From Candidatus Dormiibacterota bacterium (lineage in GTDB: Bacteria; Chloroflexota; Dormibacteria; Aeolococcales; Aeolococcaceae), in the NCBI GenBank assembly GCA_963708605.1, contig CAVPTG010000013.1, forward strand, positions 140,748 through 204,747: a stretch of 64,000 bases of DNA, in the 5' to 3' direction. The number at the start of each line of letters is the position of its first letter. Position 1 is the stretch's first letter. Shown here piece by piece: positions 10,496 through 30,716 of this stretch. Below the pieces are notes generated by a model, which worked only from the letters and a program-made list of their open reading frames with translations, did not search any database and was not told the DNA's origin. A program made the position numbers and the translations under genes.

Positions 10496-12718
10496 GTGGC
10501 GCGCATCATTAGCGGTATGACGGATACGCTCGCCACGGCAGCGGTGCCGGCACCTCCTGCGGTCGCACGCGGCCACCTTCGGGTGTTCCTCGGAGCCACG
10601 CCGGGAAGTGGCAAGACCTTTGCGATGCTCCGTGAGGCGCACGACCGCCGCTCCCAGGGGGAGGACGTCGTCGTCGGGTACGTCGAGACGCACGGGCGCA
10701 AGCTCACCGAGCAGGCGATCGGCAGCCTCGAGGTCGTCCCACGTCTCAAGGCCGAGTACCACGGAAAGCTCATGGAGGAGATGGACCTCGACGCGATCCT
10801 CGTGCGCCACCCCCAGGTGGTGCTCGTCGATGAGCTCGCTCATACCAACGTGCCCGGCGTCCGCCACGCCAAGCGCTACGAGGATGTTGAGGAGATCCTC
10901 GACGCCGGGATAGACGTGGTCACCACCGTCAACGTGCAGCACCTCGAGTTGGTCAAGGACCTCGCCGAGCGCATAACCGGCATACCGGTTCGTGAGACTC
11001 TCCCCGACCAGGTTCTTGACAATGCTGACGAGATCCAGTTCATCGACATCTCCCCCGAGGCACTTCGCAAGCGCATGCGTCACGGCAACATCTACGCCCC
11101 GGAGAAGATCGACACGGCGCTCGCGAACTTCTTCAGGCCCGGAAACCTCGCTGCGCTGCGCGAGATCGCACTTCGACTTGTGGCGCAGACCGTCGGTCGC
11201 GCGCGAGGTGCCGTCCGCCCCGCTCCGCAATCGGTGCTCGTCGCCGTCAGCGGCCGTCAGAGCAGCGGTCCACTGATTCGCCGTGCGAGTCGTCTCGCGA
11301 GGCGCTTCGGCGGCTTCTGCACGGTGCTCGTGGTGACGGGACGTCACGATGAAGAGACCGCCAGCGGCAGAACCAAGGCCAGGGAGCTCGCAGAGCTGTT
11401 GCAGTGCGGGTTCATCGAGCGCCAGGGCAAGGTCGCCGACGCTGTGATCGGGGCTGCCCAGGAACTCAACGTGCAGCATGTCATTGTCGGTGAGGCAGCC
11501 CATCCCGGCGTGCGCGCCCGCCTGCGACGCGGACTCGTGGACCGGCTGATCACCGAGCTCCCGGATGTGAGCGTGCACGTCGTCGCCCGTCCGGCTCCGG
11601 TCAGCGACAATCCATTCGACAGCGAGCAGCGCCCTGACTCGGAGATGCTCCTCCGCGCCCTGCACGCGAGCGCGAGCCGGTCCGGACTACGCGTCTACCT
11701 CGGATATGCCCGGGGCTGTGGCACCACGGTCGCGATGCTCGACGAGGCGAATCGTCGCAGCCAGCGGGGCACGGACGTTGTCGTCGCAGCGGTGAAGACC
11801 GATGGCCGCAACCGCTGCGAGATCGCCCTCGGTGACCTCGAGATGCTCGGCGGGCGAACGTCGCCTGCGCGAGAAGGCATGGTTGACGTGGAAGCGCTGC
11901 TCCGCCGCAACCCGGAGGTCGCGTGCCTCGACGATCTCGCGGGGGTTGACACGCAGGGTCGACCGATCACCGAGGCAGTACCCCGCTTGCTGCGTGCCGG
12001 GATGATGCTGATCGCGACCCTGCACCTCACCGACCTCCGCAGCACCGTCGACGGCATGGGCGCGATGCTCGGGCCACGTCCAGCACATGTTGTGGATGAC
12101 GCCTTCCTCGACGAGGTGACCGAGCTCGAGATCGTCGACATCACGCCTTCGCTCCTGGATGAACGGCTCCGCCGAGGTGAGATCGTCCCGGCGAGCGAGG
12201 CGGCTCGGGCTCGTGCCCTCGCGTTCCGACCCGAGGTCCTCGCCTCGCTCCGCGAGCTGGCCTTCCGAATCCTTGCCGAGCACACCGATCGCCGTCTGAT
12301 TGCGTACATGCGCGACCGCGGGATCGAGACGCCGTGGGAGGTGAAGCCCCGCGTCATGCTCTGCGTGCCGCCGCGCTCCGGCATGGAGGACGTTATCGCC
12401 AGCACCGCGGCGCTCGCCGCTCGACTCGACGGCAAGATGACCGCGGTCACGGTTCGCGATCGCAAGCGCTCCGAGCAGGAGATGCAACTCCTCGGTACCT
12501 ACGCCGCCCTCACCCACCAGGCCGACGGGACCTTTGTGACTCTGTACGACCGCGACCCTGCCAGTGCCCTCACGCACTACGCGCGCAAGATCCTGGCCAC
12601 CGAGATCGTCGTCACCCGTGGTCGCGGACGTCGCGGGACGCTTCGCAAGCTGATCGAGCTCCTCACCGATGTTGACATCCACGTGCTCGCGACCCCGCAC
12701 GGGGCTTCAGCAGCCTGA
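10496..12718 (+). CDS. kdpD: Cytoplasmic tandem [KdpD N-terminal sensor domain + USP domain] x2 protein; no TM or kinase domains
   Basis: Residues 1-375 align with E. coli KdpD-N (LRVFLGATPGSGKTFAML...TVNVQHLE...GNIY...FFRPGNL) followed by a USP domain. Residues ~390-740 repeat the same two domains, with a degenerate P-loop (GYARGCGTT). Confidence 0.85.
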   Translation: MARIISGMTDTLATAAVPAPPAVARGHLRVFLGATPGSGKTFAMLREAHDRRSQGEDVVVGYVETHGRKLTEQAIGSLEVVPRLKAEYHGKLMEEMDLDAILVRHPQVVLVDELAHTNVPGVRHAKRYEDVEEILDAGIDVVTTVNVQHLELVKDLAERITGIPVRETLPDQVLDNADEIQFIDISPEALRKRMRHGNIYAPEKIDTALANFFRPGNLAALREIALRLVAQTVGRARGAVRPAPQSVLVAVSGRQSSGPLIRRASRLARRFGGFCTVLVVTGRHDEETASGRTKARELAELLQCGFIERQGKVADAVIGAAQELNVQHVIVGEAAHPGVRARLRRGLVDRLITELPDVSVHVVARPAPVSDNPFDSEQRPDSEMLLRALHASASRSGLRVYLGYARGCGTTVAMLDEANRRSQRGTDVVVAAVKTDGRNRCEIALGDLEMLGGRTSPAREGMVDVEALLRRNPEVACLDDLAGVDTQGRPITEAVPRLLRAGMMLIATLHLTDLRSTVDGMGAMLGPRPAHVVDDAFLDEVTELEIVDITPSLLDERLRRGEIVPASEAARARALAFRPEVLASLRELAFRILAEHTDRRLIAYMRDRGIETPWEVKPRVMLCVPPRSGMEDVIASTAALAARLDGKMTAVTVRDRKRSEQEMQLLGTYAALTHQADGTFVTLYDRDPASALTHYARKILATEIVVTRGRGRRGTLRKLIELLTDVDIHVLATPHGASAA

Positions 12719-12746: not shown

Positions 12747-13952
12747 CTAGGACACGGCCGCCGGATCAGTGACCGCGGGATCCGCGTGAACCGCCTCAAT
12801 GGGAGCGGCCGGGAGCGTGAACGCGAAGACGGCGCCACCGCCCATCTCGGGATCGTCAAGCCAGATCCGCCCGGCGTGTGCCTCGACGATCCCGCGGGCG
12901 ATCGCAAGCCCGAGACCGGTGCCCTCTGCCCCTGACTGCTCATCGCGGACGAAACGGTCGAAGACTCGGTCGCGCAGGCCGGCGTCGACGCCGGGACCGT
13001 GGTCGATGACACGCGTGACGATCGTTCCGCGGACTCCCGGGGCCACGTGGATCTCGATCGGTGACGTCGGAGGTGCATAGCGGTCTGCGTTCACGAGAAG
13101 GTTGTCCAGAACCTGGCCGATCCGGTCCCAGTCGGCAACCGCTTCGAGCGAACCCGGCTCGATGCTCACGCGGACGGTGCGCGTGGGACGGATCTGCTTG
13201 AGGCGCCCGACCGCCGCCTCGACAGCATCACCGACATCGATATCCTCGAGGCGGAGTTCGAGCGCATGCCCCTCGATGCGAGCCAGGTCGAGCATGTCGC
13301 CCACCAGCCGATCGAGCCTCCGGGACTGGGTGACGATGCCGGAGAGACCGTCGCGAACAGCCCCCGGCACATCGGTGCGACCGAGGAGCACCGTCGCACC
13401 GGTGAGAATGCTCGCCAGCGGCGTGCGCAACTCGTGGCTGACGTTCTGGAGCAGTTCACGCCGCACACGGTCCGCGTCTCGCAGCGCGGAGATCTGCTGC
13501 TGGGTCTGCGCAAGCCGGACCGCCGTCCGGGCCGACGCCGCCTGCTCCTGGTACAACCGCTCGAGCTCAACGTTCGCCTCGGCGAGCGTTCGGGTCAGCC
13601 GGTGCGCCTCGATCATCGCGCCCCGACGAAGCGCGGCGACCCCGCCGACCGCGCTGGCGGTCGCGAAGAAGATGACCAGGTAGAGGACGTCGCCCGGATT
13701 GGCGAGGCTGAGGCTGTCCACCGGAGGAAAGAAGAAGTAGTCGCCGAGGACGGATGACAGCACCGCGGCGACCAGCGCCGGGATGAGCCCGGTGAGCAGG
13801 CCGAGTGAAGCGACAATCCCCAGGTAGAGAAAGACGTAGGCGTGCGCTTCCGACGTCGGCAACTGGGCCAGGATCAGGGTCAGGAGCGGCGGACTCACCA
13901 ACGCGATGACGATCCCGGTGACGAGCACGCGATCGGTGCGGAGGCGAGTCAT
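12747..13952 (-). CDS. KdpD-like sensor histidine kinase core (DUF4118 TM domain + HisKA + HATPase), lacking the KdpD-N/USP/GAF regions
   Basis: TM region with the FFFPP motif; HELRTPL H-box; N/G1/G2 boxes (GTGLGLAIA). ATG overlaps the stop of the upstream exonuclease reading frame (TGATG). Confidence 0.8.
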   Translation of the reverse strand: MTRLRTDRVLVTGIVIALVSPPLLTLILAQLPTSEAHAYVFLYLGIVASLGLLTGLIPALVAAVLSSVLGDYFFFPPVDSLSLANPGDVLYLVIFFATASAVGGVAALRRGAMIEAHRLTRTLAEANVELERLYQEQAASARTAVRLAQTQQQISALRDADRVRRELLQNVSHELRTPLASILTGATVLLGRTDVPGAVRDGLSGIVTQSRRLDRLVGDMLDLARIEGHALELRLEDIDVGDAVEAAVGRLKQIRPTRTVRVSIEPGSLEAVADWDRIGQVLDNLLVNADRYAPPTSPIEIHVAPGVRGTIVTRVIDHGPGVDAGLRDRVFDRFVRDEQSGAEGTGLGLAIARGIVEAHAGRIWLDDPEMGGGAVFAFTLPAAPIEAVHADPAVTDPAAVS

Positions 13953-14816
13953 CAGGACGTGGCCAGCTGCTCGTTGAGCGCATCGACAAGACGGCTCGAC
14001 GCGGCCTGCAGGCCGTGCTCGGCCATCAGGCTGTTGAGCGCCGCGGGGTCCGCCGGATAGTGGTCGCGCCGGCCTTCCGGAAGCTCGATCGGGAGGTCGG
14101 GGACCGGTGGAACCACCCGGCTCGCTCGCGTCAGATAGTCCTGGTCGTGCTCGCTCAGCCGCCGGGACTTCGAGAAGCGCCGCGACGCCACCATGCTGGC
14201 GGATCATCGAGGCGGCAGCGACTGCGCCAACGCCTTTCAACCCCGGCAGCCCATCCGACGGATCGCCACGCAGCATCGCGTAATCCGCGTAGCGACGCCC
14301 TGGGATCCCGTAGCGCCGGGTCACCTCGGATTCGTCGACGAGTGCCCATGCCCCCTTCTCCGGGTAGAGCACCGTGACCCGCGGGTCCTCGACCAGCGCG
14401 AACAGGTCGCGGTCACCACTCACGATCTCGACGGTCGCGGCGGCCCTCGCGGTCCAGGTGGCGATGACGTCCTCCGCCTCGTACCCGGCGACGCCGAGCG
14501 CATCGATGCCGATCGCGGCAAGGAACGCGTCGATGACCGGCATCTGCGGGATGAGTGCCGGCGGGATCGGCTCCGCGACCCGCTGCGCTTTGTATCCCGG
14601 GATCAGCGCCACCCGCCAGTCCGGGCGCCAGTCGGCATCACTCGCGATCGCCAGGTGCTTCGGCTCCCTGGTGCCGGCCAGCCGCGTCAGCGTCTCGAGG
14701 AATCCCCGTGCGGCGTTGATCAGCCTTCCGTCCGGGGACCGCACCGTCTTGGGGACGCCGTAGAAGGCGCGGAAGATGAGGCTGGACCCGTCGACGAAGA
14801 GCCAGTCGCAGGACAT
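13952..14816 (-). pseudogene. 5'-3' exonuclease (FEN/Pol I N-terminal-like), reading frame interrupted near 14170-14200
   Basis: N-terminal PIN domain (WLFVDGSSLIFRAFYG) and H3TH motif (LPGLKGVGAVAAASMIRQHGGVAALLE) lie in one frame. The plausible C-terminus (...LSEHDQDYLTRASRVVPPVPDLPIELPEG...LATS*) lies in another frame, ending exactly at the kinase start. This could be a sequencing indel or a genuine frameshift. Confidence 0.65.
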
Positions 14817-14903
14817 CGACCGTCTACCGGCACCCATTCATGTGCGCGGCCATCGTAGCGTCCACCGGCTCGCTCCTCCGGGCTCATCTGCGACGCTTCC
14901 GGT

Positions 14904-17838: not shown

Positions 17839-20800
17839 CTACTGGAACCAGCCCGCGAGGTCGAGGATCGCATTGATCGTGCCAAAGGCGTTGTACAGAG
17901 CCACATCACCCACAGACGGCACGCTCTGGGCGACGCCGACGATCGACAGATTCGCTCTGACCTCGCCGGCGAGCGCGTTCAGGTCCGAGGCGCGCGGGAC
18001 TTGAACGACATTGGCCGGGAAGAGCGTGAACAGCGTGGTTGCATTCCCCGCCACCGCCGTCACATTGGCGACGATCGCAATCGGTGGCGTTCCGCTCATC
18101 ACCGGCACCTCGTGGACCCCCGCGACCGGGATCGCCAGTGTGGAATTGCCGCCGAGCGTCTCGCCTGCGCACTCGGTGCCTGAGCCGGTGCGAGTGTCAC
18201 AAATGCGCGTCGGTGCGACTGAGTTGAACAGAGCACCCACCGTCGTTTCGGCGCCCGTGCCGAACCACCCGTCGACATCGATGATGAAGTCGACGCTCCC
18301 CACCGCGTTGAAGACGCACACGTCATTCCGCGGTCCGAGCGCTGAGATCACACGGTTGGGCAAACTCTGATTCGCCGCCGGGTTCACGTTGGAAACCAAC
18401 GGCCGGGCCGGACATTGGTCGCTGCTGTTCGGTGGGGCGACCGCGAGGTAGGTTGCCTGGGTATCCGCGGTTGCCGTGAGATTGAAGACGGCGGTCGCGG
18501 CTGTTCCGTCGGATGGTATCGACGGGGTTGAAGGAGGAGCTCCAGGTGGCAGGCCGGACAGCACGACATCGCGCCAGGTCCCGCCTGCGACCCGGCCGCC
18601 GCACCCGATTCGAGTGTCGCATCGTCTCAACGGCGCAATGCTGTGGAATTCGCCGGGAACGATCCCGGAACCTACGGGAGTGGCGAAGTATCCCTCGACA
18701 TCCACAATCACGTCGGCAACTCCAACGGCGTTGTAGAGCGTTATCGCCCCCGCGGCGCTGAGCTGCACGATCGCCAGGTTGGTCGCGACGCCGCTGTGCT
18801 GGATATTGATATTGGACGCGAGAGGCCGCGCGACGCCTGTCGGATACGCGGTGATAAGGGTGCTCGAATTCGTGTCATTGACCGCAGTCAAATTGACTAC
18901 GACGGAGCGAGCTCCGGCCGGCACCACTCCCCCGGTGATCTGAACGTTCAGGGTGCCACCGGAGCCGAGAGCCCTTCCCTTGCACTGATTCGGCGGTATG
19001 GTCGAGGCGGACCGGGTGTCGCATGCGCGGAACGGCGTGATCGCGTGATAAGCGGTCGGGTCGAGGTACACATACGCGGACGGGTCAACAGCCGTGCTGT
19101 GGTCGGGATTGGTGATGGTCAGCGCGGCGGCTCCCGCTCCATTGGATGGCGGTACGGTTGCCGACCACGAGTTGGTGCCCGTGCTGGTGAGCGTCAACGG
19201 GTGGCCGCCGAGAGACATCGCCACCCCGGGTTGGAGGTCGACCCCGGTGATATGAATCGTTCCACCACCGGACGGCGGCCCCGATGCCGGCGTGAGGGTC
19301 AGGACGCCCGGGCCAACTTCGAGCTTGCCCGCGCCCCAGGTCGGGGCCGCCCTGCTGTTGGTGAGCGGAGTCGTGTTCGCGGACTGTGCGAGCAGCGACT
19401 TCGCCTGTGCGACGTCGATTGTGGGCTGCTGTTCGAGCAAGAGTGCAAGCGCACCCGCGACATGCGGAGAGGCCATGCTCGTGCCCTGGAGGAACAGGTG
19501 GTTGCCGTCTGATGGCTCGCATCCCTCGAATGAGCCGGCGGGACAATCACCGGCGATCGTTCCCTCTGCCGCCACGGAGGAGAGCGAGGAACCGATCTCC
19601 TCGCCGGGAGCAACGATGTCGATCCCAGTGCGACCATCCAGGGTGGGCCCGTGGCCGCTGAAGCTGCTGATGGCGCCTACGACTGAGGAGTCCGTCTGCG
19701 TGCCGAGATAACTGGGCCAGGAGTTCCTGCTGACATAGCTGCCGACGGCGATGACGTCGTGCGCGCTCGCGGGTTCGTCGAGCGTCGAATTGTCGTTTCC
19801 GTCGCCGACGTAGAAGAAGTAGTCCCCCTGATCAAACGTCCATGCGTTGTACTCACCACTCGGCGTCGTGTTACCCCGCAGCAGCACCTGAAAGTCGTTG
19901 AAACATGGGAAGGTCACTGAACAATCGATCCCGTCCGCTGGGGAGATGAGGCCCGCGGCACCGCCCGAATTCGCGTTGAAGAGGGCTATCTGGATTTCAT
20001 TCATACCGTTGCTGGGCATGTGCGTGCACGAGAGGATCTCGAGAACATTGCCTTGGGTATCAGTGAATTCGTCCCCTCCGGGCGTCGGCTGGGTACACGC
20101 GCCGCCCTCTCCTGAGACGCCGGTTGTATCGGGCGACACCCAGGCCGTCTGGCCATGGCCGGGTTCATTGATCGCCGCTGAGATTGAGTTTGCTCCCGGG
20201 TACCAGAGGTCGAGAAATATGGGCATGGCCTGCGCAACAAGGCCGTCAGTCCGCACTTGCCCAAATGCCACCGTTCCACTGGCGTGATAGTGAAACGACG
20301 GATCGTTGGTCGCTTCATTGCCACCCGCGACGCTGACAAGCTTTCCCGGACCAGTGAGCGCGTCGAGCATCGTTTCGAATATGTCGCTGCCGTCATGGGG
20401 ACCCACGTTGGTACCGAGGCTGATATTCACCGAGGCGGGTTCGCCACGCGACCCTGCAACCTTGAAGATGTACGCAACCCCGTCTACGATGTGCGCGAGG
20501 TTACCGTCGTTCTTGACAATGACGAGGTCCGACTCCGGCGCTACGCCGATATAGGTTCCCCAGGATGCCGCGCGTCCGTCGGAGGCTGCGATCCCGGCGA
20601 CGTGTGTCCCGTGCCCATCGCAGTCCTCTTCAGGCAAGGATTCGGGGGCGGACCCCACAACGCCAACCGGCGTATCACAGGGATCAGGCCCGTACTGGCT
20701 GTACGAGAACGGACCGCAGGCTGCTGCTTTGATCGCCGATTGGCTGCACTCGGCGCCATACGTGAATCCCTGCGAGTTGGGTGGCTGAGCGGGGCAACTG

Positions 20801-22632
20801 TTGCCCGACGGATTGGGGCAGGCGGCCTGATCCCAGAGGTCGACGATGCGCGTCCCGGAGTTGGTCTGGAAATCGGGGTTGCTGAGGTCGATGCCCGTAT
20901 CGACAACTCCAACCACTGTGCCTTGCCCCCCATCGCCGCTGAACGTCGGCGGCGCCGGCGAGTGGAAGATCGTCGGTGCGTAGTCCTGCGCAAGTGTGCA
21001 GGCACCAGTGATGTACACGCCGGTTCCGGACACGGCGGGTTGAGCTGAATCTGCGAGCGCAGTGTTGGCCAATTGCACCTCCGCGCCGGTGGATTCGGAC
21101 CATCCCGACAAGGTGGCAGCCGAGTTGAGGTAGACAGCTCCGTTGCTCGCAACCAGTGCTTGCCCACCTTGATAGACTTGGGGCTGGGTCCAGGCGAGAG
21201 CACCCGTGTCGGCGTCAAACGCCGTGATGTGTGTGGTTCCAGCCGCGGCGACCGTAAAGACGCGGCCATTGTCGTATGCGAGCCCTGAGAACGCGCTGGT
21301 GCCCAACGAGATGGGTCCCCAAGCGACTGAACCGTCGGATTCGTTCAGTGCGTACAGCGAGGCTTCGCCGAAAGCCGGAGGCACAGCCGAGGCCTGCGCG
21401 ATGACATAAACCAAGCCCCCTGCTATCAGCGGGTTCGAGACGGTCGCGCCCAGCGTCACACTCCACTTCGGGCTCGCCGCGAGCGGTGCGGTGAGGCTGT
21501 CTGTCGGCTGGTCGCCGTCATGGCCTGCATTGATCTGATACGCAACATCGGTATCGGAGGAAACCGACACAGTCGTGTCACCGAAAGCCGTGAGTGTCCC
21601 GGTTGCAGGCACCACCAACAGGCCCCCGCCCGCTCCAAGTCCGGACGGCAATCCATGGCCGCTGGCCTCGTCCTCCTTGGGCGGTGAAATCGGGGCGCCA
21701 GCATTGCCAGCCCAGATGGGTGTGTTCAGCATGGTCCCGTTGCCGGCCTCCGGTAGCGCGAACACCTTTCCCGAGCCCGCCCCTACATACACATTTCCAT
21801 TCACCACAATCGGTGCCGTGATCGGGGCCGAGCTCGGGCTCCCGTCTCCGGAGAACGTCCAGAGCGCGGTGCCGCTCGCATTGCGCGCAGTCAGCACGCC
21901 TGCGCTGACGTAGAACCCGGTCGTCCCATCGAAGGCCGGCGCAAGGTCGGCAGTGAACGTGCCGACATCGAGGCCCGTCGTTGCATTGAGGATGAAGTTC
22001 CCCTCCTGCACGTTTCTATCGTAGAGGAGCCCGTCATGAAGGACAGGCACGCGAGCGGCGTTGATCGAACAGTTCGCGCCGGTCTCCCAGACAACCTTGC
22101 CACCCTCGGAGGTCATATACGGTCCATCCGAGCCTCCGGTGCCGGACCACAAATGAGGGACACCTGCATTGCTTACGTGCCCTGGTTCCGACGCGTGAAT
22201 TGCAGGAACGCTCATATCGAGCTGTTTCGTAGCCTGGCCGGCAAGTTCCACCTCGGTGATCCCTGGCAGCGCCGCCAGGAGTTTCAACTCAGCGAGGGTT
22301 GCATCGGCGGTGGCGCCGACCCTGAGCACGGTGCCTGGCACGGCGCCCGTCTGAGCGATCGCCTCGGCAGTTGTCGTGCCCCGAATGAACACACCGTATG
22401 TCGTGCCCTGCTTGGTCGCCCTGCCCCGTAGCCACGCCGCCGGGAGTTTGCGGCCATGCACGGTTGCCGAAATGGCGGCCTCGGCCAGCGGCCCGAGGGT
22501 AGCGTGATGTCCGCGCGCAACCGGCGCTGGCGCCGCGACGCCGCTCAGTGGCTGCGACTGCGACCACACTGCGGTCGCCATCAGCGCAGCCACCAGAACA
22601 TAGGCGAAACGCTTCACGGAGAACTCCCTCAC
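17839..22632 (-). CDS. Giant secreted multidomain protein: PQQ-like beta-propeller + S8 subtilisin-like protease (with insertions) + IPT/TIG domain + three C-terminal CDTR...GWF repeats
   Basis: Signal peptide; S8 catalytic triad contexts VVGVVDTGID, DCDGHGTHVAGIAAS and GTSMASPHVAGALALL; PQQ-type repeats; three ~125-aa C-terminal repeats. Confidence 0.85.
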   Translation of the reverse strand: MREFSVKRFAYVLVAALMATAVWSQSQPLSGVAAPAPVARGHHATLGPLAEAAISATVHGRKLPAAWLRGRATKQGTTYGVFIRGTTTAEAIAQTGAVPGTVLRVGATADATLAELKLLAALPGITEVELAGQATKQLDMSVPAIHASEPGHVSNAGVPHLWSGTGGSDGPYMTSEGGKVVWETGANCSINAARVPVLHDGLLYDRNVQEGNFILNATTGLDVGTFTADLAPAFDGTTGFYVSAGVLTARNASGTALWTFSGDGSPSSAPITAPIVVNGNVYVGAGSGKVFALPEAGNGTMLNTPIWAGNAGAPISPPKEDEASGHGLPSGLGAGGGLLVVPATGTLTAFGDTTVSVSSDTDVAYQINAGHDGDQPTDSLTAPLAASPKWSVTLGATVSNPLIAGGLVYVIAQASAVPPAFGEASLYALNESDGSVAWGPISLGTSAFSGLAYDNGRVFTVAAAGTTHITAFDADTGALAWTQPQVYQGGQALVASNGAVYLNSAATLSGWSESTGAEVQLANTALADSAQPAVSGTGVYITGACTLAQDYAPTIFHSPAPPTFSGDGGQGTVVGVVDTGIDLSNPDFQTNSGTRIVDLWDQAACPNPSGNSCPAQPPNSQGFTYGAECSQSAIKAAACGPFSYSQYGPDPCDTPVGVVGSAPESLPEEDCDGHGTHVAGIAASDGRAASWGTYIGVAPESDLVIVKNDGNLAHIVDGVAYIFKVAGSRGEPASVNISLGTNVGPHDGSDIFETMLDALTGPGKLVSVAGGNEATNDPSFHYHASGTVAFGQVRTDGLVAQAMPIFLDLWYPGANSISAAINEPGHGQTAWVSPDTTGVSGEGGACTQPTPGGDEFTDTQGNVLEILSCTHMPSNGMNEIQIALFNANSGGAAGLISPADGIDCSVTFPCFNDFQVLLRGNTTPSGEYNAWTFDQGDYFFYVGDGNDNSTLDEPASAHDVIAVGSYVSRNSWPSYLGTQTDSSVVGAISSFSGHGPTLDGRTGIDIVAPGEEIGSSLSSVAAEGTIAGDCPAGSFEGCEPSDGNHLFLQGTSMASPHVAGALALLLEQQPTIDVAQAKSLLAQSANTTPLTNSRAAPTWGAGKLEVGPGVLTLTPASGPPSGGGTIHITGVDLQPGVAMSLGGHPLTLTSTGTNSWSATVPPSNGAGAAALTITNPDHSTAVDPSAYVYLDPTAYHAITPFRACDTRSASTIPPNQCKGRALGSGGTLNVQITGGVVPAGARSVVVNLTAVNDTNSSTLITAYPTGVARPLASNINIQHSGVATNLAIVQLSAAGAITLYNAVGVADVIVDVEGYFATPVGSGIVPGEFHSIAPLRRCDTRIGCGGRVAGGTWRDVVLSGLPPGAPPSTPSIPSDGTAATAVFNLTATADTQATYLAVAPPNSSDQCPARPLVSNVNPAANQSLPNRVISALGPRNDVCVFNAVGSVDFIIDVDGWFGTGAETTVGALFNSVAPTRICDTRTGSGTECAGETLGGNSTLAIPVAGVHEVPVMSGTPPIAIVANVTAVAGNATTLFTLFPANVVQVPRASDLNALAGEVRANLSIVGVAQSVPSVGDVALYNAFGTINAILDLAGWFQ

Positions 22633-22856: not shown

Positions 22857-23444
22857 GTGAGTCAGATCCCTGCCGTTGTCGCCGACTGCGACCGCACCTT
22901 CGCGGCCGTCCAACGCCTGGTCGATGCGGTGCAACCCGATCAATGGACGGCATCGACCCCATGCACCGACTGGGACGTGCGTCAACTGCTGAACCATGTC
23001 GCCAACGGCAACGTGATCTTTGCGGGCGTGGCGGATCGCACACGCCCATCGGGTCCCGTCTCACCGGAGGAGCGAGCCGTTGATCGTCTTGGGGACGACC
23101 CCGCAGCCGGATTCCGGGCAACCGGCGCAAGGATGCACGAAGCCTTCCTCACGCCGGGATTCCTTGACGGCACCGTCGATACACCCATGTTGGGTGAACA
23201 GCCTGGAACAACCGTCGTGCACATGCGCATCAACGAGTTGCTCATCCACGGGTGGGATCTCGCTCGCGCGATCGGACGTACGCCTGACCTCCCCGAGGAT
23301 CTTGCCGAGGGTGCGCTGATCCTGTGGCAGACGCGTCTTGCGGACAGACCCCGTGAGGGCATGCCATTCGGGGTCCCGGAACCTGTCGCCGACGACGCGC
23401 CCGCAATTGACCGGCTCGCAGCCTTTCTGGGACGGAAGCCCTGA
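22857..23444 (+). CDS. TIGR03086-like DinB/mycothiol-dependent maleylpyruvate isomerase N-terminal domain protein
   Basis: Family-typical N-terminal WTASTPCTDWDVRQLLNH and C-terminal segments. Confidence 0.6.
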   Translation: MSQIPAVVADCDRTFAAVQRLVDAVQPDQWTASTPCTDWDVRQLLNHVANGNVIFAGVADRTRPSGPVSPEERAVDRLGDDPAAGFRATGARMHEAFLTPGFLDGTVDTPMLGEQPGTTVVHMRINELLIHGWDLARAIGRTPDLPEDLAEGALILWQTRLADRPREGMPFGVPEPVADDAPAIDRLAAFLGRKP

Positions 23445-23986
23445 CCACTCCAGCGCCGCACCGACCAAGCAAGGATCAGTACTTCCTGCTGATCGCGCTC
23501 GCCGCCAGAACCCGCGCCGACTGCCTGGGCCGGAGAGTTGGAGCGGTCATCACCCGCGATGCCCGCGTTCTGAGCACAGGCTACAACGGCACCCCATTCG
23601 GGATGCCGAACTGCTCGGAAGGCGGATGCCACCGCTGCTCGCGGCGCGACGACGACCGGCTGCGCGGGGGCGCGTACGACGTCTGCATCTGCGTGCATGC
23701 CGAACAGAACGCACTCCTCACCGCGGCGCGCTTCGGCCAGCAGACGCTCGGCGCCTCGATGACATCCACGATGCAACCCTGCTTCGGCTGCCTCAAGGAG
23801 ATGCTGCAGGCAGGCATCAGCGAGGTCCGCTACCTCCACCCCTGGGACCCGATGGAGGCCTATGACGACCGGGCATTGGTCCAGCAATATGCAGCGCTGC
23901 GCGCGCGTTTCGACGCCTTCTCCCAGGTCGGCGACCCGGCGATGGACACCTCGGAACTCTTCGGAGCGTTTCTCGAGCAGAGCTGA
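23441..23986 (+). CDS. dCMP/cytidine deaminase (zinc-dependent)
   Basis: CVHAEQNAL and PCFGCLKEM zinc-binding motifs. Conserved N-terminus KDQYFLLIALAARTRADCLGRRVGAVI lies upstream of the first ATG (23603). The only in-frame start candidate is CTG at 23441, so the start is uncertain. Confidence 0.7.
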   Translation: MTTPAPHRPSKDQYFLLIALAARTRADCLGRRVGAVITRDARVLSTGYNGTPFGMPNCSEGGCHRCSRRDDDRLRGGAYDVCICVHAEQNALLTAARFGQQTLGASMTSTMQPCFGCLKEMLQAGISEVRYLHPWDPMEAYDDRALVQQYAALRARFDAFSQVGDPAMDTSELFGAFLEQS

Positions 23987-25651
23987 TCAGGCGCCGGTCT
24001 GGTCGACCAGCTGGACACGTTCGTGCTCGATCGCGGTGGCGAGATCACGAACCCGCGAGAGCGTATCGATATCGGTCGGCGCCTTGTCGTGCCGCCACCT
24101 CGCGATACGAGGAAACCGCAGCGCGAAGCCGGACTTGTGCCGAGCCGAGAACTGCACCGCGTCGAACGCAATCTCGAGGACGATGCGCGGCTCGACGGTG
24201 CGGTAATGACCGTGATCGGCAATCGTGATGTCGAGCAGCAGCGCGGTCATGTCGGCGATCTCGACGTCGGTGAGTCCGGTGTACGCCTTGCCGATGGTCG
24301 CGAGCTCGTCCGTGTCGTCGACGCGCACCGCGAAGGTCACGTCGCTGAGCACGCCGCGGCGCTTGCCGTGACCCCACTCTGCGCCGACGACCACGACGTC
24401 GAGCGTGTCGAGAGGACGCTTGAGCTTGAGCCAGTTGAGCCCGCGCCGGCCCGGTGTGTACGGGGATTCGGGTTGCTTCAACAGCAGTCCTTCGTTCAGT
24501 CGAGCGCGTGCATCCTCGAAGCGTCGTTCGATCTCGGCTTCGCCATGCACCCGCTCGAGGTGAGCGAGCGCGAGCGGATGCGGGACGGTCAGTGCCTCGA
24601 GACGTGCGCGCCGCTCCCGGAGAGGGTGGTCGATGAGCACCTCGTCGTCGACCCGAAGCACGTCCCATGCAACGTAGATCACCGGCACCGCCGCCATCAC
24701 CTCGGCATCCGGCGAGACACGGCCGAGCCGTGTCTGCAGCGCATGGAACGGCATCACGCGCCCATCGCGGAACGCGAGGATCTCGCCGTCGAGCATCACG
24801 TCGGCCCGAAGATGCACAGCCGCATCGGTGATCTCGGGGAACTGGTCCGAGATGTTCTTCAGGTCGCGGCTGTAGAGCGCGGCGTCGCCGCCGTGCCGAT
24901 GGAGCTGACACCTGATTCCGTCATATTTGTCTTCAACCCAGACGTCCTCGCCGAGTCGCGCAACCGCCTCCGCGGCGTCGGCAACCGGGGTTGCGAGCAT
25001 GGACCGGAGCGGCACGAACCAGTGCGGGGCAGCGGCGTCAAGCCGTCCCAAGCGGGCCAGGAGCGCCGCCTCACCGAGGTCACCGGTCAGCATCACCGCA
25101 CGGCTCACCGCATCGGACGGCGCGGAGAACGCAATGGCGATCGCCTCCTCCACGAGCCCTTCGCGCAGCCCGATGCGCAGCTCGCCGGTGATCAGCTTGG
25201 CGATGTAGCGCGCCTCATCCGGGGTCACGCGCCCGAGGAGGGCGCTGAGCCGCGCGTTCCGCTCTTTGGCCACGCGCGCATTCGCGATCTGCGCAAACTC
25301 CTCATCGAGGTCGCGGATCAATATCGGCGCCGTCTCAAGGCCGTCGACGCCGGACAGCAGCTCGCCGGTGACGTCGCCGGTATCCGAGTGCCGCCGCCAG
25401 GCTGCACGGATGGTCGCGTCGTCGGCGCCGCTGACGGCGCGCAGCACCGCGGAGAACGCGGCGCCGCCGATCTGGAGGGTGCGCTGGTCCCCTGCGGGAA
25501 AGACGCCGCCGCCGAAGTAGCGCGCCACCTGCGCGAGCTCGGCTTCATCGGTCGCGGCGAGGAACTGCGCCAGGATCCGCACCTTCTCCGACTTCGAGGA
25601 GGTTCGTGCGATCGCATCGCCGGCGGTCGCCAGCTCGGACAGCGTGGTCAC
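23987..25651 (-). CDS. ATP-dependent DNA ligase
   Basis: Adenylation motif EDKYDGIRCQ and the OB and DNA-binding domains. GTG at 25651 preferred; the 25774 extension is R-rich and would overlap the upstream gene. Confidence 0.85.
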   Translation of the reverse strand: MTTLSELATAGDAIARTSSKSEKVRILAQFLAATDEAELAQVARYFGGGVFPAGDQRTLQIGGAAFSAVLRAVSGADDATIRAAWRRHSDTGDVTGELLSGVDGLETAPILIRDLDEEFAQIANARVAKERNARLSALLGRVTPDEARYIAKLITGELRIGLREGLVEEAIAIAFSAPSDAVSRAVMLTGDLGEAALLARLGRLDAAAPHWFVPLRSMLATPVADAAEAVARLGEDVWVEDKYDGIRCQLHRHGGDAALYSRDLKNISDQFPEITDAAVHLRADVMLDGEILAFRDGRVMPFHALQTRLGRVSPDAEVMAAVPVIYVAWDVLRVDDEVLIDHPLRERRARLEALTVPHPLALAHLERVHGEAEIERRFEDARARLNEGLLLKQPESPYTPGRRGLNWLKLKRPLDTLDVVVVGAEWGHGKRRGVLSDVTFAVRVDDTDELATIGKAYTGLTDVEIADMTALLLDITIADHGHYRTVEPRIVLEIAFDAVQFSARHKSGFALRFPRIARWRHDKAPTDIDTLSRVRDLATAIEHERVQLVDQTGA

Positions 25652-25694
25652 TCGCGGATCATCACCCGCAACGAGCGGCCCGCGTCGCCCGGCG

Positions 25695-27492
25695 CTACCC
25701 CGTCGGGTTGTACACCGGGGGCGGATGCGCCGCACACCCATCGCAGGCCGCCGACCACCAGAGGCTGCCACCACTCCCCTGCCAGAATGCGGCGACCGCG
25801 TTGCTGTACCAACTCACGGCCGACAGCTGCGAGCTCGCCGCGACCTGGTTGAGCTGTTCCGGACCGACCCACCCGTTGTGAGGGTCGTACACCGCGGCGG
25901 CGAGGCTGCCGTTGGCGCGCTGCATCACGACGGTGACCGCGCTCGCAGCCGTCCCAGCCGCGGCCGGCCGGCCCATGCTCGCGGTCGAGTTCCACCTCCA
26001 CCTGCCCGGGACCACCATTCGGGGTCACGCTCGCAGCCCACACCGACCCGGTGCGAGTCCGCCAGATCGCGTCGACGTTGCTGACGCCGGCGGTGACCAC
26101 GGTCGGATCGCTCGCCAGGCCACCTGTGCCGATCTCATGGGCGCCATACCAGCCATAGGCCGCGGAGAGGTCACTCCACAGATTGCCGGCTGCATCTCGC
26201 CATACGATCCCCACCGTCCCATCGGCAGTCGCCACCGCATACGGGTTGCCCAGAACCAGGCCGGAGTTGAGCGGCGTCCCGCCTGACCAGCTCCCGGTGA
26301 ACGTGTTGACCCACAGCTGGCCGTCCACGCTCTTCCAGATGACCTCCATCTCGCCGGGCCCCTGGCTCACCGCGGTCGGAGCGGAGCCGGGAGCGAGCGT
26401 GCCAGTCGGCAACCGCTGCGGGGGCAGCCATGACTCGGCCCCGAAGTAGCCGCTCTGAGACTGCACCTGCCACAGGGCACCGGTGGTGTCCTCCCAGAAG
26501 ACGTCAACCTGGCCCGCCGACGGTGAGACGACGGCGGGGTCAGAGGCGACATCAGCGGGGGTGATGGCCGCAAGCGCAGTCGCCTGCCAGGCGTCGCTGC
26601 GGTAGCGGAGGTCGTGGAGCTTGGCGTCGGTGCCACGCCAGATCACGTCCATATTGCCGGGTTGGTCCGAGACGCTCTGCGGAGTCCCGGCAACGCTCGA
26701 TGTGGTCAGCTCCACCGGCGTCTGCTCGGTCTGGCGGAGCCAGCCGATGATCGGCGTGTACCCGTTGGCGGTGACCAGCGATCCGCTGAGCGGAAAGCGA
26801 TCGGTCCCCGACGAGGTGGCGTTCTGCTCGACGAGATCGACGTATCCGGGGCCGACATCGCGAACGACCGCGACGTGTCCCGAGGCGTCCCAGTAGCGGC
26901 CGAGCCAGCCCGGTGCGAAGATCATCAGGTCGCCCTGCATCGGCGCCACGCCCGCCCCGTTGGCGAATTGCTGCAGGGGGATCGGGAGGTTCGGACCAGC
27001 GCTCCACATCGAGTAGGCCTGACCGCCCCACGTGGCCGGCTCTCCCCAGGCGTAGTACGCGTAGCGAAGCGCGAGCTGGGTGCACTGGAACTCGGGTCCG
27101 AACTCGCATCCGAAGGGGGTGCCGCACCCGACGTCGTCGAACGACGAGCCGTTGCCGTACGCGGTGAGGTTCTGGCAGTTGGTGACCCAGGTGGCCCAGG
27201 TGCACCCGCTGATGAGGGGCTGCCCGTAGTTGCCCGTGCCGGCCGTCTCGGCGGCGAGCATGCCGTGCGTGACCGTCGGCGCCGCGGGCGACGGCGGCGG
27301 GCTCGTGGCGGCAGTCGGCGTCACCGGCGGGGCCGTGAGAGCGACCACGGCACCCACGCTCCAGGCTGCCGTGACCGGCGCCGTGGTGTCCGCGGTGCTC
27401 CTGACCGCAGCTCCGGCGCTCAGGAGCGGAGCGAAGCTCGCGGATCCAGCGAGCAGCGCGGCAAGCGCGAGTCGATGGAAGGCCGAATGCAT
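25695..27492 (-). pseudogene. Secreted CHAP-domain amidase/peptidase with seven tandem W-rich ~45-aa (beta-propeller/lectin-like) repeats; frame discontinuity near 26020
   Basis: Signal peptide; CHAP motifs (GQPLISGCTWATW ... GHVAVVRDV). Repeats of the form xVDVFWxxxxGxLW. The last two repeats and a credible C-terminus (..AFWQGSGGSLWWSAACDGCAAHPPPVYNPTG*) lie in a different frame from the first five. Confidence 0.7.
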
Positions 27493-27593
27493 GCCGGCCC
27501 AGACTGCCAGACGACCTCTGACGTTGCCGTCACGGGGTCGCAACGATCGAGTTCGCCCCCCGGTGACGCCGGCGACCGAGCCGGGTCAGGCGA

Positions 27594-30500
27594 TTACTGG
27601 AACCAGCCCTCGATGTCGACGACCGCGTTGACGCTCCCGGCGGCGTTGTACAGGTCCGCGTCGCCCTGGCCGGCCCCGGCCAGGGGATCGAGCTGCACGA
27701 CCACCAGGTTGGGGAGCACCTCGCCGGTGCTCACGTTGATGTCGGACGCATTCGGGGACCTACCGGGTGTGGCCGGGTACATGACCAGGTACGTCGCGGC
27801 GGTGGGCGCGATGGCCGTGAGGTTGGCGATCACCGCCACCACCGTGGTGCCCGAGGTGACCGAAGGGATCCCGCCCTGCCCGGCCACCGTGATGAGCGAC
27901 GGAGTCGGCGGAGCGATCGCGTGTCCGGCGCAGCCCGGTCCGCCGCCCACTGTCCGGGTGTCGCAGATGCGCGTCGGCTGGATCGCCTGGTACTGGGCGC
28001 CTGCCGCCGCCGTTGAGCTCCCGAACCAGCCGTTGGCGTCGATGACCACATTGATCGAACCGGCGGCATTGAAGACGCACAGCGATGTGGGGTGACCGCC
28101 CGGAGTGGTGGGCCCGAGCTGGACCATGACCCGGTTGGCAGCCACCAATCCCGCGGAGAGGCTGACGTTGGAGAACTGGGGGCCGTGCGTCCCGCTGTAC
28201 GGACACTGGCCGGTCGAGGTGGTCGCCGAGAGGCTGAGGAAGGTATTGGCGGTGCCGGCGACGCCGGTGAGGTTGACGACAACGGCCGACGCGCTCCCGT
28301 CGGCGGGAACACTGTCAGACCCGATCCCGATCCCGGTGACATTGACGAGCATCGCGGCGCCGGGCCCGAGGATGCCGTGCGCTTTGCACGCGGGAGTCGG
28401 CGACATACTCCTCGTGTCGCACACTCGAACCGGCGCGATCGGATGGAATTCGCCGGTGACCGTGCTCGACGGCGCCGGTTCGAAGTATCCCTCGACGTCG
28501 GCGAGGACGTTGACCGTCCCGGCGGCGTTGTAGATGTCGATCGCCCCGCCCTGGCCCAGGGTCACGGTCACCAGGTTGGCAATCACCTTGCCCGCTGCGA
28601 AGTTGAGATTGGAGGCGCGGGGGAGCCCCGTCCCAAACGGATAGACGGTGAGCAGGCTGTTGGCGGTGCCCGCGACCTCGGTCACGTTCAGGACCACCGC
28701 CGTCGAGTCGCTGGGAATCGGCACGCCGAACGCAAGCCCGGTGAGCTGCACCTTCCTGATCGTGCCGGGTCCGAACGTCGGATCCTGCGCGCACTGCACG
28801 CAGCTCGCCGGCCGGGTGTCGAGGATTCGATAGGGCAGGATCGGGTGATAGTTGGCCAGGCCGACGTAGATGTAGCCGGTGCCGACCGTGATCGGGCTCG
28901 TGCCCAGCGAGTCGTGCACCTGCCCTTCGACGAGCCCCGAAGAGCCCGGCGGTGTCGTGAACGTGAACGCGTCGGGAGTGAGCGAGCCGGTTGTCGGCAG
29001 AACCGGCGAGCCGTTGAAGGTGAACGTGCTGTCTGTGCCGAAATCGTAGCCGGCAACAGTGACCAGTTCGCCGCCTGATGCCGGTCCAGCGGCGGGCGAC
29101 AATGACGCGATCACGGGCCCCGCGAACGTGTAGCGGCCGATGTACGTGTTCCAGCACGTGTTCGCGGTCGCGCAATCCGGGACGGTATTGCCGTCGTTCT
29201 CCTCGGAGACGACCCACACGTCAGTGGGGCGCGACGGATCCTGCACTGCTGCGGAATAGTCGCCCCACGCGCACGTCGAGCACGCCGCCGGCTGGTAGAA
29301 GTTGGTGCTCTGGTGCAGCGTGGTCAAGGAGCTCCACACGCCGCCGGTGATCGCTGCGACCATCATCGACTCGAGCGCCGAGCTCGACGACTTGTCGAAT
29401 GTCAAGATGGCATCGCCGGCGCTGTCGAGGGCGAGCGCGGGGTCGTAGAGATACGCACCGCTCACGGACTCCGCTGGGAACTGCGCCGGCGTGCCAACCG
29501 AGGTCCCCGTGGCGGGAATCGACACGATGTTCAGGCACGAGCGGACCTGGCTGTCGCCACCCGGCGTGCACCCCGTATTCCCCGCAACCCAGAGCACGTT
29601 GCCCTGCCACACCGCACTCAAGAAGCTGTCTGTTCCGGTCGTCAGTGTCGCCGCCGTACCGGCTTGCGCGGCCGCGGGCGGAGTGCTCGTCGGCGTTGGC
29701 TCGGGACCGGCCGTGCATGTCACCGTCACGCCGCCGGCGGTCGGAACGCCATTGATGGCAAATACCGCGATGCTGCCCGATACCCGGCCGGAGCAATTGG
29801 CGTTATTCGCAACCGCGTACGCGACTGTCTGTGCGGTCCATGCCTGCGCTGGTTGCAGCCCGATCGGCCCCGGTTCGACGAACGCGTCGCTGTTGGCGGT
29901 GAACGCGCCGCTGATGAAGTCCACTCTCCGGATCACCTCCATCTGACTTGCCACCGGGAGGCCGGTGCTGCAACTCTGGTAGTCGCTGGTCTCGACGAGG
30001 ACACTCCCGGTGATCGCGAGCGAGACCGTCGACAGCTCCACGCCACCGCCGATCTCGGGATCGATGTTGATCTGACCCCGCGTGATCCATGGCAGCGCCG
30101 GGTTCGCCTGCGACAGCATGACCTCCACCTGGCTCACGCACCCCGACAACGTGGGGTTGTACTGCAGCACCATCAGGACGAAGCGCCCGGACACGGGGTC
30201 GTACACCACGTGGGGGTACCGCAGCGAGAAGCCCGACGTGTTGCCCACCATTGCGCTGAGGTTCATGAATATCGGTGATGCACCGGAGCGCGTGGTGACC
30301 TCGAGCGCACTGTTCACCGCTTCGACGATGTTGCTCGGGCCGATCGCAATGCTCGGATCGGCCGGCGAGGTCACGTTGGGATTGCTCGATCCCGCATGCT
30401 CGAGCGCGAGCTGGTCGCTCATCCCCGGCTGATTCTGCAGGAGCGACGGGGAGCTTCCCGCGGCAACCGCCGCAGCGCGCACCGTGGGCGCACCGGTGCG

Positions 30501-30716
30501 ATGCGCATCGCCGCGTGCATGCTGTGACGCTGCTGTGAGCGACGCCGCGCGCGCGAATGCGCTTGCGATGACTGGCGTCGCTGACCACGCAACGGTGAGT
30601 GCGGCGACCAGCGCGGACGACAGGATGAACGTTCGGCGCACCGCCTCGATTCTAAGTGCGAATCCCGGAAGTGACACGCCGCTGTCACAGAGGTCATCGA
30701 TTCGTGACATCCACAT
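27594..30716 (-). CDS. Large secreted protein: unknown N-terminal domain + IPT/TIG domain + three C-terminal CDTR...GWF repeats
   Basis: Signal-peptide-like segment RRTFILSSALVAALTVAWSATPVIASA. IPT motif SLSPAAGPASGGELVTVAGYDFG. Three repeats paralogous to those in the 17839..22632 product, ending ...DIEGWFQ*. The start could be GTG at 30641. Confidence 0.8.
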   Translation of the reverse strand: MWMSRIDDLCDSGVSLPGFALRIEAVRRTFILSSALVAALTVAWSATPVIASAFARAASLTAASQHARGDAHRTGAPTVRAAAVAAGSSPSLLQNQPGMSDQLALEHAGSSNPNVTSPADPSIAIGPSNIVEAVNSALEVTTRSGASPIFMNLSAMVGNTSGFSLRYPHVVYDPVSGRFVLMVLQYNPTLSGCVSQVEVMLSQANPALPWITRGQINIDPEIGGGVELSTVSLAITGSVLVETSDYQSCSTGLPVASQMEVIRRVDFISGAFTANSDAFVEPGPIGLQPAQAWTAQTVAYAVANNANCSGRVSGSIAVFAINGVPTAGGVTVTCTAGPEPTPTSTPPAAAQAGTAATLTTGTDSFLSAVWQGNVLWVAGNTGCTPGGDSQVRSCLNIVSIPATGTSVGTPAQFPAESVSGAYLYDPALALDSAGDAILTFDKSSSSALESMMVAAITGGVWSSLTTLHQSTNFYQPAACSTCAWGDYSAAVQDPSRPTDVWVVSEENDGNTVPDCATANTCWNTYIGRYTFAGPVIASLSPAAGPASGGELVTVAGYDFGTDSTFTFNGSPVLPTTGSLTPDAFTFTTPPGSSGLVEGQVHDSLGTSPITVGTGYIYVGLANYHPILPYRILDTRPASCVQCAQDPTFGPGTIRKVQLTGLAFGVPIPSDSTAVVLNVTEVAGTANSLLTVYPFGTGLPRASNLNFAAGKVIANLVTVTLGQGGAIDIYNAAGTVNVLADVEGYFEPAPSSTVTGEFHPIAPVRVCDTRSMSPTPACKAHGILGPGAAMLVNVTGIGIGSDSVPADGSASAVVVNLTGVAGTANTFLSLSATTSTGQCPYSGTHGPQFSNVSLSAGLVAANRVMVQLGPTTPGGHPTSLCVFNAAGSINVVIDANGWFGSSTAAAGAQYQAIQPTRICDTRTVGGGPGCAGHAIAPPTPSLITVAGQGGIPSVTSGTTVVAVIANLTAIAPTAATYLVMYPATPGRSPNASDINVSTGEVLPNLVVVQLDPLAGAGQGDADLYNAAGSVNAVVDIEGWFQ

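Follow-up and report, generated by a model that had tools for sequence, protein, structure and literature searches.

The window analysed here is a stretch of 64,000 nucleotides (G+C content 66.8%) from contig CAVPTG010000013.1 of an uncultured soil bacterium, a Candidatus Dormiibacterota (assembly GCA_963708605.1). It carries two open reading frames (ORFs), designated ORF A and ORF B, whose products both end in three tandem copies of the same repeat. This C-terminal triple, which we tentatively regard as a module for retaining secreted enzymes on the producing cell, is the subject of the present analysis. The ORF A product starts with a Sec-type signal peptide and contains a subtilase domain of the S8 family (E 6e-34), in which the D/H/S triad motifs are DTG, HGTH and GTSMASPH. 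The signal region of ORF B (RRTFIL...) is possibly of the Tat type. The layout of both genes, together with that of their neighbours, is given in Table 1.

That ORF A ends in three related copies, as a preliminary description of the locus had proposed, is confirmed by BLASTP self-matches of repeat 1 with repeat 3 (E 7e-19) and with repeat 2 (E 3e-20). The triples of ORF A and ORF B are collinear and 42% identical (E 1e-87), and among the six copies identity to the first copy ranges from 36 to 45%. Eighteen positions are invariant in all six (P6, R8, D11, T12, R13, G40, N53, T55, P70, P76, S79, N91, N107, A108, G110, D117, G120 and F122). A profile built from the six copies and run over the six-frame translation of the window detected no seventh. 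The earlier count holds, as does the observation that ORF A terminates exactly in AGWFQ; ORF B likewise ends in GWFQ. Other details required amendment. The copies do stand in tandem, but their true length is 129-152 residues including linkers and not about 125, and the module, correctly located, begins at approximately 19050 in ORF A and 28850 in ORF B, where 19000 and 28790 had been given. The repeat motif is broadly as described, except that the proline at its third residue is confined to ORF B. Similarly, the R-x-C-D-T-R signature stands, but its cysteine gives way to leucine in repeat 1 of ORF B and in the majority of the family at large, and the GWF ending is replaced by GYF in repeat 1.

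Around ten polar residues per repeat (R8, D11, T12, R13, N53, T55, S79, N82, N91, N107 and D117), two arginines and two aspartates included, show little or no variation even in very distant members of the family. This pattern suggests a conserved ligand or ion site, one for every repeat or for every groove between two repeats.

Table 1. Coordinates of the two triple-bearing genes, their domains and neighbouring features in the window.
Feature	Position (nt)	Length or residues (aa)	Strand	Remarks
ORF A	17839-22632	1597	minus	Signal peptide, PQQ-like beta-propeller, S8 subtilase, TIG, triple repeat
TIG/IPT immunoglobulin (Ig)-like stalk, ORF A	19066-19302	1111-1189	minus	Pfam PF01833, E 9e-06; directly upstream of the triple
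ORF A repeat 1	18649-19050	1195-1328	minus	162 bits with the six-copy profile
ORF A repeat 2	18229-18648	1329-1468	minus	Proline-rich insertion and extra cysteine pair (DQCP...DVCVF)
ORF A repeat 3	17842-18228	1469-1597	minus	Ends ...AGWFQ, then stop codon
ORF B	27594-30716	1040	minus	Signal peptide region, about 530 aa with no recognised domain, TIG, triple repeat
ORF B, part of N-terminal region	29097-30536	61-540	minus	No Pfam match and no PDB sequence match
TIG/IPT, ORF B	28911-29117	534-602	minus	Pfam PF01833, E 4e-11
ORF B repeat 1	28449-28850	623-756	minus	Collinear with ORF A repeat 1
ORF B repeat 2	27993-28448	757-908	minus	Collinear with ORF A repeat 2
ORF B repeat 3	27597-27992	909-1040	minus	Ends ...EGWFQ, then stop codon
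CHAP-domain secreted protein (peptidoglycan-hydrolase type)	25648-27543		minus	Pfam PF05257, E 7e-08; about 50 bp downstream of ORF B
ATP-dependent DNA ligase	23987-25774		minus	Between ORF B and ORF A
301-aa ORF	22982-23887	301	minus	No Pfam match; between ORF B and ORF A
Exonuclease-kinase ORF	12747-14837		minus	5'-3' exonuclease domains (E 4e-40) joined to DUF4118-HisKA-HATPase_c
KdpD sensor and Usp half	10496-12718		plus	Immediately upstream of the exonuclease-kinase ORF

The repeat belongs to a real and very large family that has no curated entry in Pfam, NCBIfam or the PDB. When 1.84 billion proteins, each representing a cluster at 50% identity, were searched exhaustively with HMMER, the repeat was recovered in 30,570 representatives at E <=1e-3, in 20,453 at E <=1e-10 and in 8,721 at E <=1e-30. 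None of 120 listed relatives has a precomputed Pfam domain, and all are hypothetical or nameless save for one JGI entry labelled FlgF; full-text literature searches did not retrieve a description of the domain. When the full proteins, and each of the six repeats taken alone, were scanned against Pfam and NCBIfam, the repeat region gave only chance-level matches (DUF2187, CHAT and HisG, at E 0.01 or worse), and no named wall-binding family was matched. Even among Pfam hits on the six copies at E values up to 10, or among those on either full protein, there was no SLH, no CWB2 and no carbohydrate-binding module (CBM) family. The Pfam and NCBIfam matches of ORF A, ORF B and the single copies did not include LysM, SH3b, GW, WxL, PG_binding_1 or choline-binding repeats, and the Pfam scan found no Por_Secre_tail domain (PF18962) in either protein. 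Profile searches of PDB sequences, made with alignments of the six copies and of 52 sequences, were equally at chance level (titin Ig, acid phosphatase, Sap and flagellin, E 0.77 or worse).

Orthologues of ORF A with the same C-terminal triple are present in the Dormibacterota metagenome-assembled genomes (MAGs) palsa_834 and MFD09291 (loci L001 and L002), and are 89% identical over repeat 3. The search of genome loci further returned MAGs of Acidimicrobiia and Actinomycetes as well as Phycicoccus elongatus Lp2, and Kitasatospora and Streptacidiphilus occur among the listed relatives. The domain is also found on plasmids of Streptomyces, Curtobacterium and Arthrobacter, in genes annotated only as hypothetical, PKD-domain or cutinase-family. 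One family match carries a Binatia MAG label. The named hosts (Dormibacterota, Acidimicrobiia, Streptomyces, Kitasatospora, Streptacidiphilus, Curtobacterium, Arthrobacter and Phycicoccus) are monoderm Terrabacteria, a distribution that we count in favour of anchoring.

The number of copies is close to fixed. Among the best-scoring 150 representatives, a copy number of exactly three was counted in 140 proteins, of four in one, of five in five and of six in four. These figures should be read with some caution, as a list of best scores is biased toward high copy numbers, and an independent sample of 21 genome loci was therefore fetched with a single repeat as the query. Each of the 24 apparently complete genes found there carries three copies, no more and no fewer; other counts occurred only in ORFs that are visibly frameshifted or truncated. 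Proteins with more than three copies mostly consist of three, a spacer of 90-220 residues and another three; when the copies of the proteins with four to six were assigned to types 1, 2 or 3, the scores differed too little to tell the types apart. The repeat most closely related to a given copy came from the same position of a different protein in 348 of 426 cases. The triple is thus passed on as a whole, with features specific to each position, of which the extra cysteine pair and proline-rich insertion of repeat 2 are an example. A triple contains a median of six cysteines, and the conserved cysteine pairs fit an extracytoplasmic location.

Position is nearly as constant as number. The triple was terminal in 143 of the 150 representatives, at the extreme C-terminus in 131 and directly after the signal peptide in 12, and C-terminal triples end in G-W/Y-F/Y followed by zero to three residues. 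No LPXTG-type tail was seen in the proteins of the N-terminal class that we inspected. The partners are diverse: they comprise S8 and G1/A4 peptidases, GH25, GH18 and GH5 enzymes, CHAP domains, cutinases and purple acid phosphatases, as well as Rv2525c-like domains, propellers of the PQQ, NHL, RCC1 and BNR types, and He_PIG arrays. SLH, LysM, PG_binding, CWB2 and LPXTG are all missing from the lists of partner domains. On its N-terminal side the triple usually has an Ig-like domain (TIG, fn3, PKD or Big), and genes with triples tend to cluster, with two within 13 kb in the window and two or three in each of loci L007, L010, L012 and L013. The TIG region of ORF A (aa 1108-1179, approximately 19096-19311 on the minus strand) also gave a sub-threshold NCBIfam match to "choice-of-anchor Z" (25 bits, with a cut-off of 30), a class named for the alternative C-terminal anchors that come after such domains.

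Structure prediction with AlphaFold2 bears out the expectation that the repeat is a discrete domain. From an alignment of 52 sequences, a single repeat (ORF A repeat 1) was modelled as an all-beta, eight-strand sandwich of about 125 residues with a predicted local distance difference test (pLDDT) score of 95.3 and a predicted template modelling (pTM) score of 0.88, and from an alignment of 77 sequences the whole triple reached a pLDDT of 95.6 and a pTM of 0.93. At this pTM the three domains are confidently placed relative to one another, and are not beads on a string. We therefore propose that the C-terminal block of about 400 residues would form one compact structural unit of three jelly-roll beta-sandwich domains.

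A beta-sandwich structurally similar to the repeat is the C-terminal tip of the MAT fibre protein Bd2133 of Bdellovibrio bacteriovorus (PDB 8OND and 8OK3). Identity in the structural alignment is 11%, and the tip was not retrieved by the profile searches of PDB sequences. Moreover, in Bd2133 three separate chains assemble into a homotrimer at the distal end of the fibre, which faces the prey, whereas here the three copies lie in one chain. TNF/C1q-like jelly-roll trimers have no sequence relationship to the repeat either; the engineered single-chain TNF trimer (PDB 4ZCH) aligns over 191 residues, with low scores and a global Foldseek TM-score of only 0.22, and of 0.23 at most. Taken together, the rule of three copies, linkers of only some ten residues between repeats, the high pTM and the trimeric state of the nearest fold lead us to infer a pseudo-threefold packing, in which the triple would most likely be a single-chain pseudo-trimer.

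Terminal threefold modules are a known theme in surface attachment, on which the fixed triple may by analogy be a new take. SLH triples (PF00395), known from Bacillota and other groups, consist of three terminal copies on S-layer proteins and exoenzymes, form one pseudo-trimeric body and anchor non-covalently to a pyruvylated secondary cell-wall polymer. The likeness to the present module lies in the three tandem terminal copies acting as one unit and is an analogy of layout only: SLH repeats are alpha-helical, of about 55 residues, and have a TRAE motif, whereas the repeats here are all-beta, 130-152 residues long and without a Pfam match. CWB2 triples (PF04122), which in the Cwp proteins of Clostridioides difficile form a triangular unit of three and serve as the non-covalent anchor of many surface enzymes, have an alpha/beta fold and occur in other phyla, and no sequence match links them to the all-beta repeats. 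Our results thus uphold the earlier statement that the repeat does not resemble SLH or CWB2. The repeat shares a beta-jelly-roll fold with CBM35, CBM36, CBM6 and CBM22 in the absence of sequence similarity; CBMs vary in number and position and are matched to the substrate of the enzyme, whereas the present triple is fixed and its partners have unrelated functions. The type IX sorting domain (PF18962), which leads to surface attachment, is likewise a beta-sandwich at the extreme C-terminus, and in remote homologues of the ORF A protease it occupies the equivalent C-terminal place. It is, however, a single copy of about 80 residues that is cleaved and depends on an outer-membrane translocon, whereas the triple has no sequence match to it and occurs in monoderm hosts. 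As judged by sequence tests, which fail for all of them, the triple belongs to none of these systems, be it SLH, CWB2, the Bd2133 tip, the CBMs or the type IX sorting domain.

Close Dormibacterota homologues of the S8 core of ORF A carry the triple. Among about 100 protease-core homologues at 32-36% identity, 37 have a type IX sorting domain (Por_Secre_tail or FlgD_ig) according to precomputed Pfam labels, and its extreme C-terminal position was confirmed in all five homologues that were rescanned. Another homologue has a hydrophobic segment and then an arginine-rich tail at its end. The C-terminal slot of the protease lineage is thus taken up elsewhere by surface-attachment signals. At this slot the triple and known sorting signals are interchangeable, which we count as an independent argument for anchoring. 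A different arrangement is seen in a relative that is 59% identical in the protease core (P0381), where about six repeats of some 45 residues (GYVLDGWGGVH...YWPGWDIARG; aa 780-1042) replace the triple after the TIG domain. These repeats had no Pfam match either and make up a second module without a name, found in the C-terminal place of the triple.

We favour the interpretation that the triple is a non-covalent module which keeps exoenzymes on the cell by binding a glycan in the envelope of the producer itself, but we advance it tentatively, at somewhat less than even confidence. In the same tentative sense the module may be analogous to the SLH and CWB2 triples while being unrelated to both. 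Following export by the Sec or Tat route, the triple would bind a polymer of the envelope, either peptidoglycan-associated or a secondary wall glycan, and the Ig-like stalk and enzyme head would thereby be held outside the monoderm cell. The head would be the S8 protease with its propeller in ORF A, and the 530-residue domain in ORF B. The order of parts, with a signal peptide first, then the functional head and the Ig-like stalk, and a fixed triple at the terminus, is the one known from SLH- and CWB2-anchored proteins, and no other anchor was seen. A more far-reaching version, which we put forward as a doubtful possibility, is that the triple constitutes a third and structurally unrelated class of threefold non-covalent envelope anchor besides SLH and CWB2: a natural single-chain jelly-roll trimer that recognises an envelope glycan and provides the main route of exoenzyme display in Actinomycetota and Dormibacterota.

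The candidate surface-anchoring role advanced in the preliminary description is therefore plausible and better supported than before by the fixed three copies, the terminal position, the diverse secreted partners that lack another anchor and the sorting domains of the protease homologues. However, several observations weigh against it. The module is acidic (median isoelectric point 4.6, net charge about -9), which sets it apart from many proteins that bind anionic wall polymers. Neither a tblastn search of 50,697 phage records nor two IMG/VR scans revealed a phage lysin or receptor-binding protein with the domain, and there is thus no independent pointer to a wall ligand. Moreover, neither the fold class nor the nearest structure sets the module apart from outward-facing lectins and adhesin tips, for which both are just as typical. 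The main competing explanation builds on this last point. According to it the triple is a lectin or CBM-like module that faces outward and binds an external glycan (of plants, fungi, other bacterial walls or soil organic matter), keeping freely released enzymes on their substrate with the avidity of three domains, as is the case for the ricin-type CBM13 on Streptomyces exoenzymes. Such a role is compatible with most of the same data. We nevertheless consider it less likely than anchoring, though still a serious contender, given that many partners have no polysaccharide substrate (S8 and G1 proteases, phosphatases, RCC1 and NHL propellers, Ig arrays), that the triple at the terminus is nearly invariant whereas substrate-targeting CBMs vary in number and position, and that distant protease homologues have cell-attachment or sorting signals at the equivalent position.

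A structural or assembly element with no specific envelope ligand would account for the compact and confidently placed body in the AlphaFold2 model, for the conserved G-W/Y-F/Y ending at the extreme C-terminus and for the frequent occurrence of triple genes side by side. It could be a self-associating, S-layer-like foot, and one family member has a weak local match to the archaeal S_layer_C domain; alternatively, it could be an extension that assists export or folding and is later removed, comparable to the PPC pre-peptidase domain. The some ten conserved polar residues per repeat point to a ligand or ion site and not to a passive spacer, and we find this explanation improbable. For the removable extension in particular, there is no sequence match to PPC and the module is N-terminal in about 8% of proteins. 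A C-terminal protease pro-domain was rejected, as most partner domains are not proteases.

To our knowledge little has been established, apart from sortase, about how exoenzymes are retained in high-GC Gram-positive bacteria and their uncultured soil relatives. If the triple is indeed a wall anchor, a single profile would give an annotation to tens of thousands of proteins that at present carry only the label hypothetical, and would delimit the set of surface-displayed proteins in Dormibacterota, Acidimicrobiia and many Streptomyces. An envelope polymer would then be indicated as the ligand, and actinobacterial biotechnology would gain a compact display tag. Even with an external ligand, more than 30,000 representative clusters and a strict three-copy architecture justify curating the family and determining its structure.

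From ORF B to ORF A the window contains five genes, all in one direction. The CHAP-domain protein encoded next to ORF B has no copy of the repeat according to the six-copy profile; about six D(V/A)IWR...G.LW repeats give it a propeller-like look, and its last 120 or so residues, which overlap the neighbouring ligase ORF, seem to be out of frame. The order of ORF B and CHAP genes is also implied in a relative, P0139, the tail of which reads through into a CHAP signal peptide. Elsewhere in the window, the DUF4118-HisKA-HATPase_c portion of the exonuclease-kinase ORF corresponds to the C-terminal half of a KdpD-type kinase, and the sensor and Usp half of KdpD is encoded on the opposite strand. 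This split arrangement possibly reflects an inversion, a fusion or an assembly problem.

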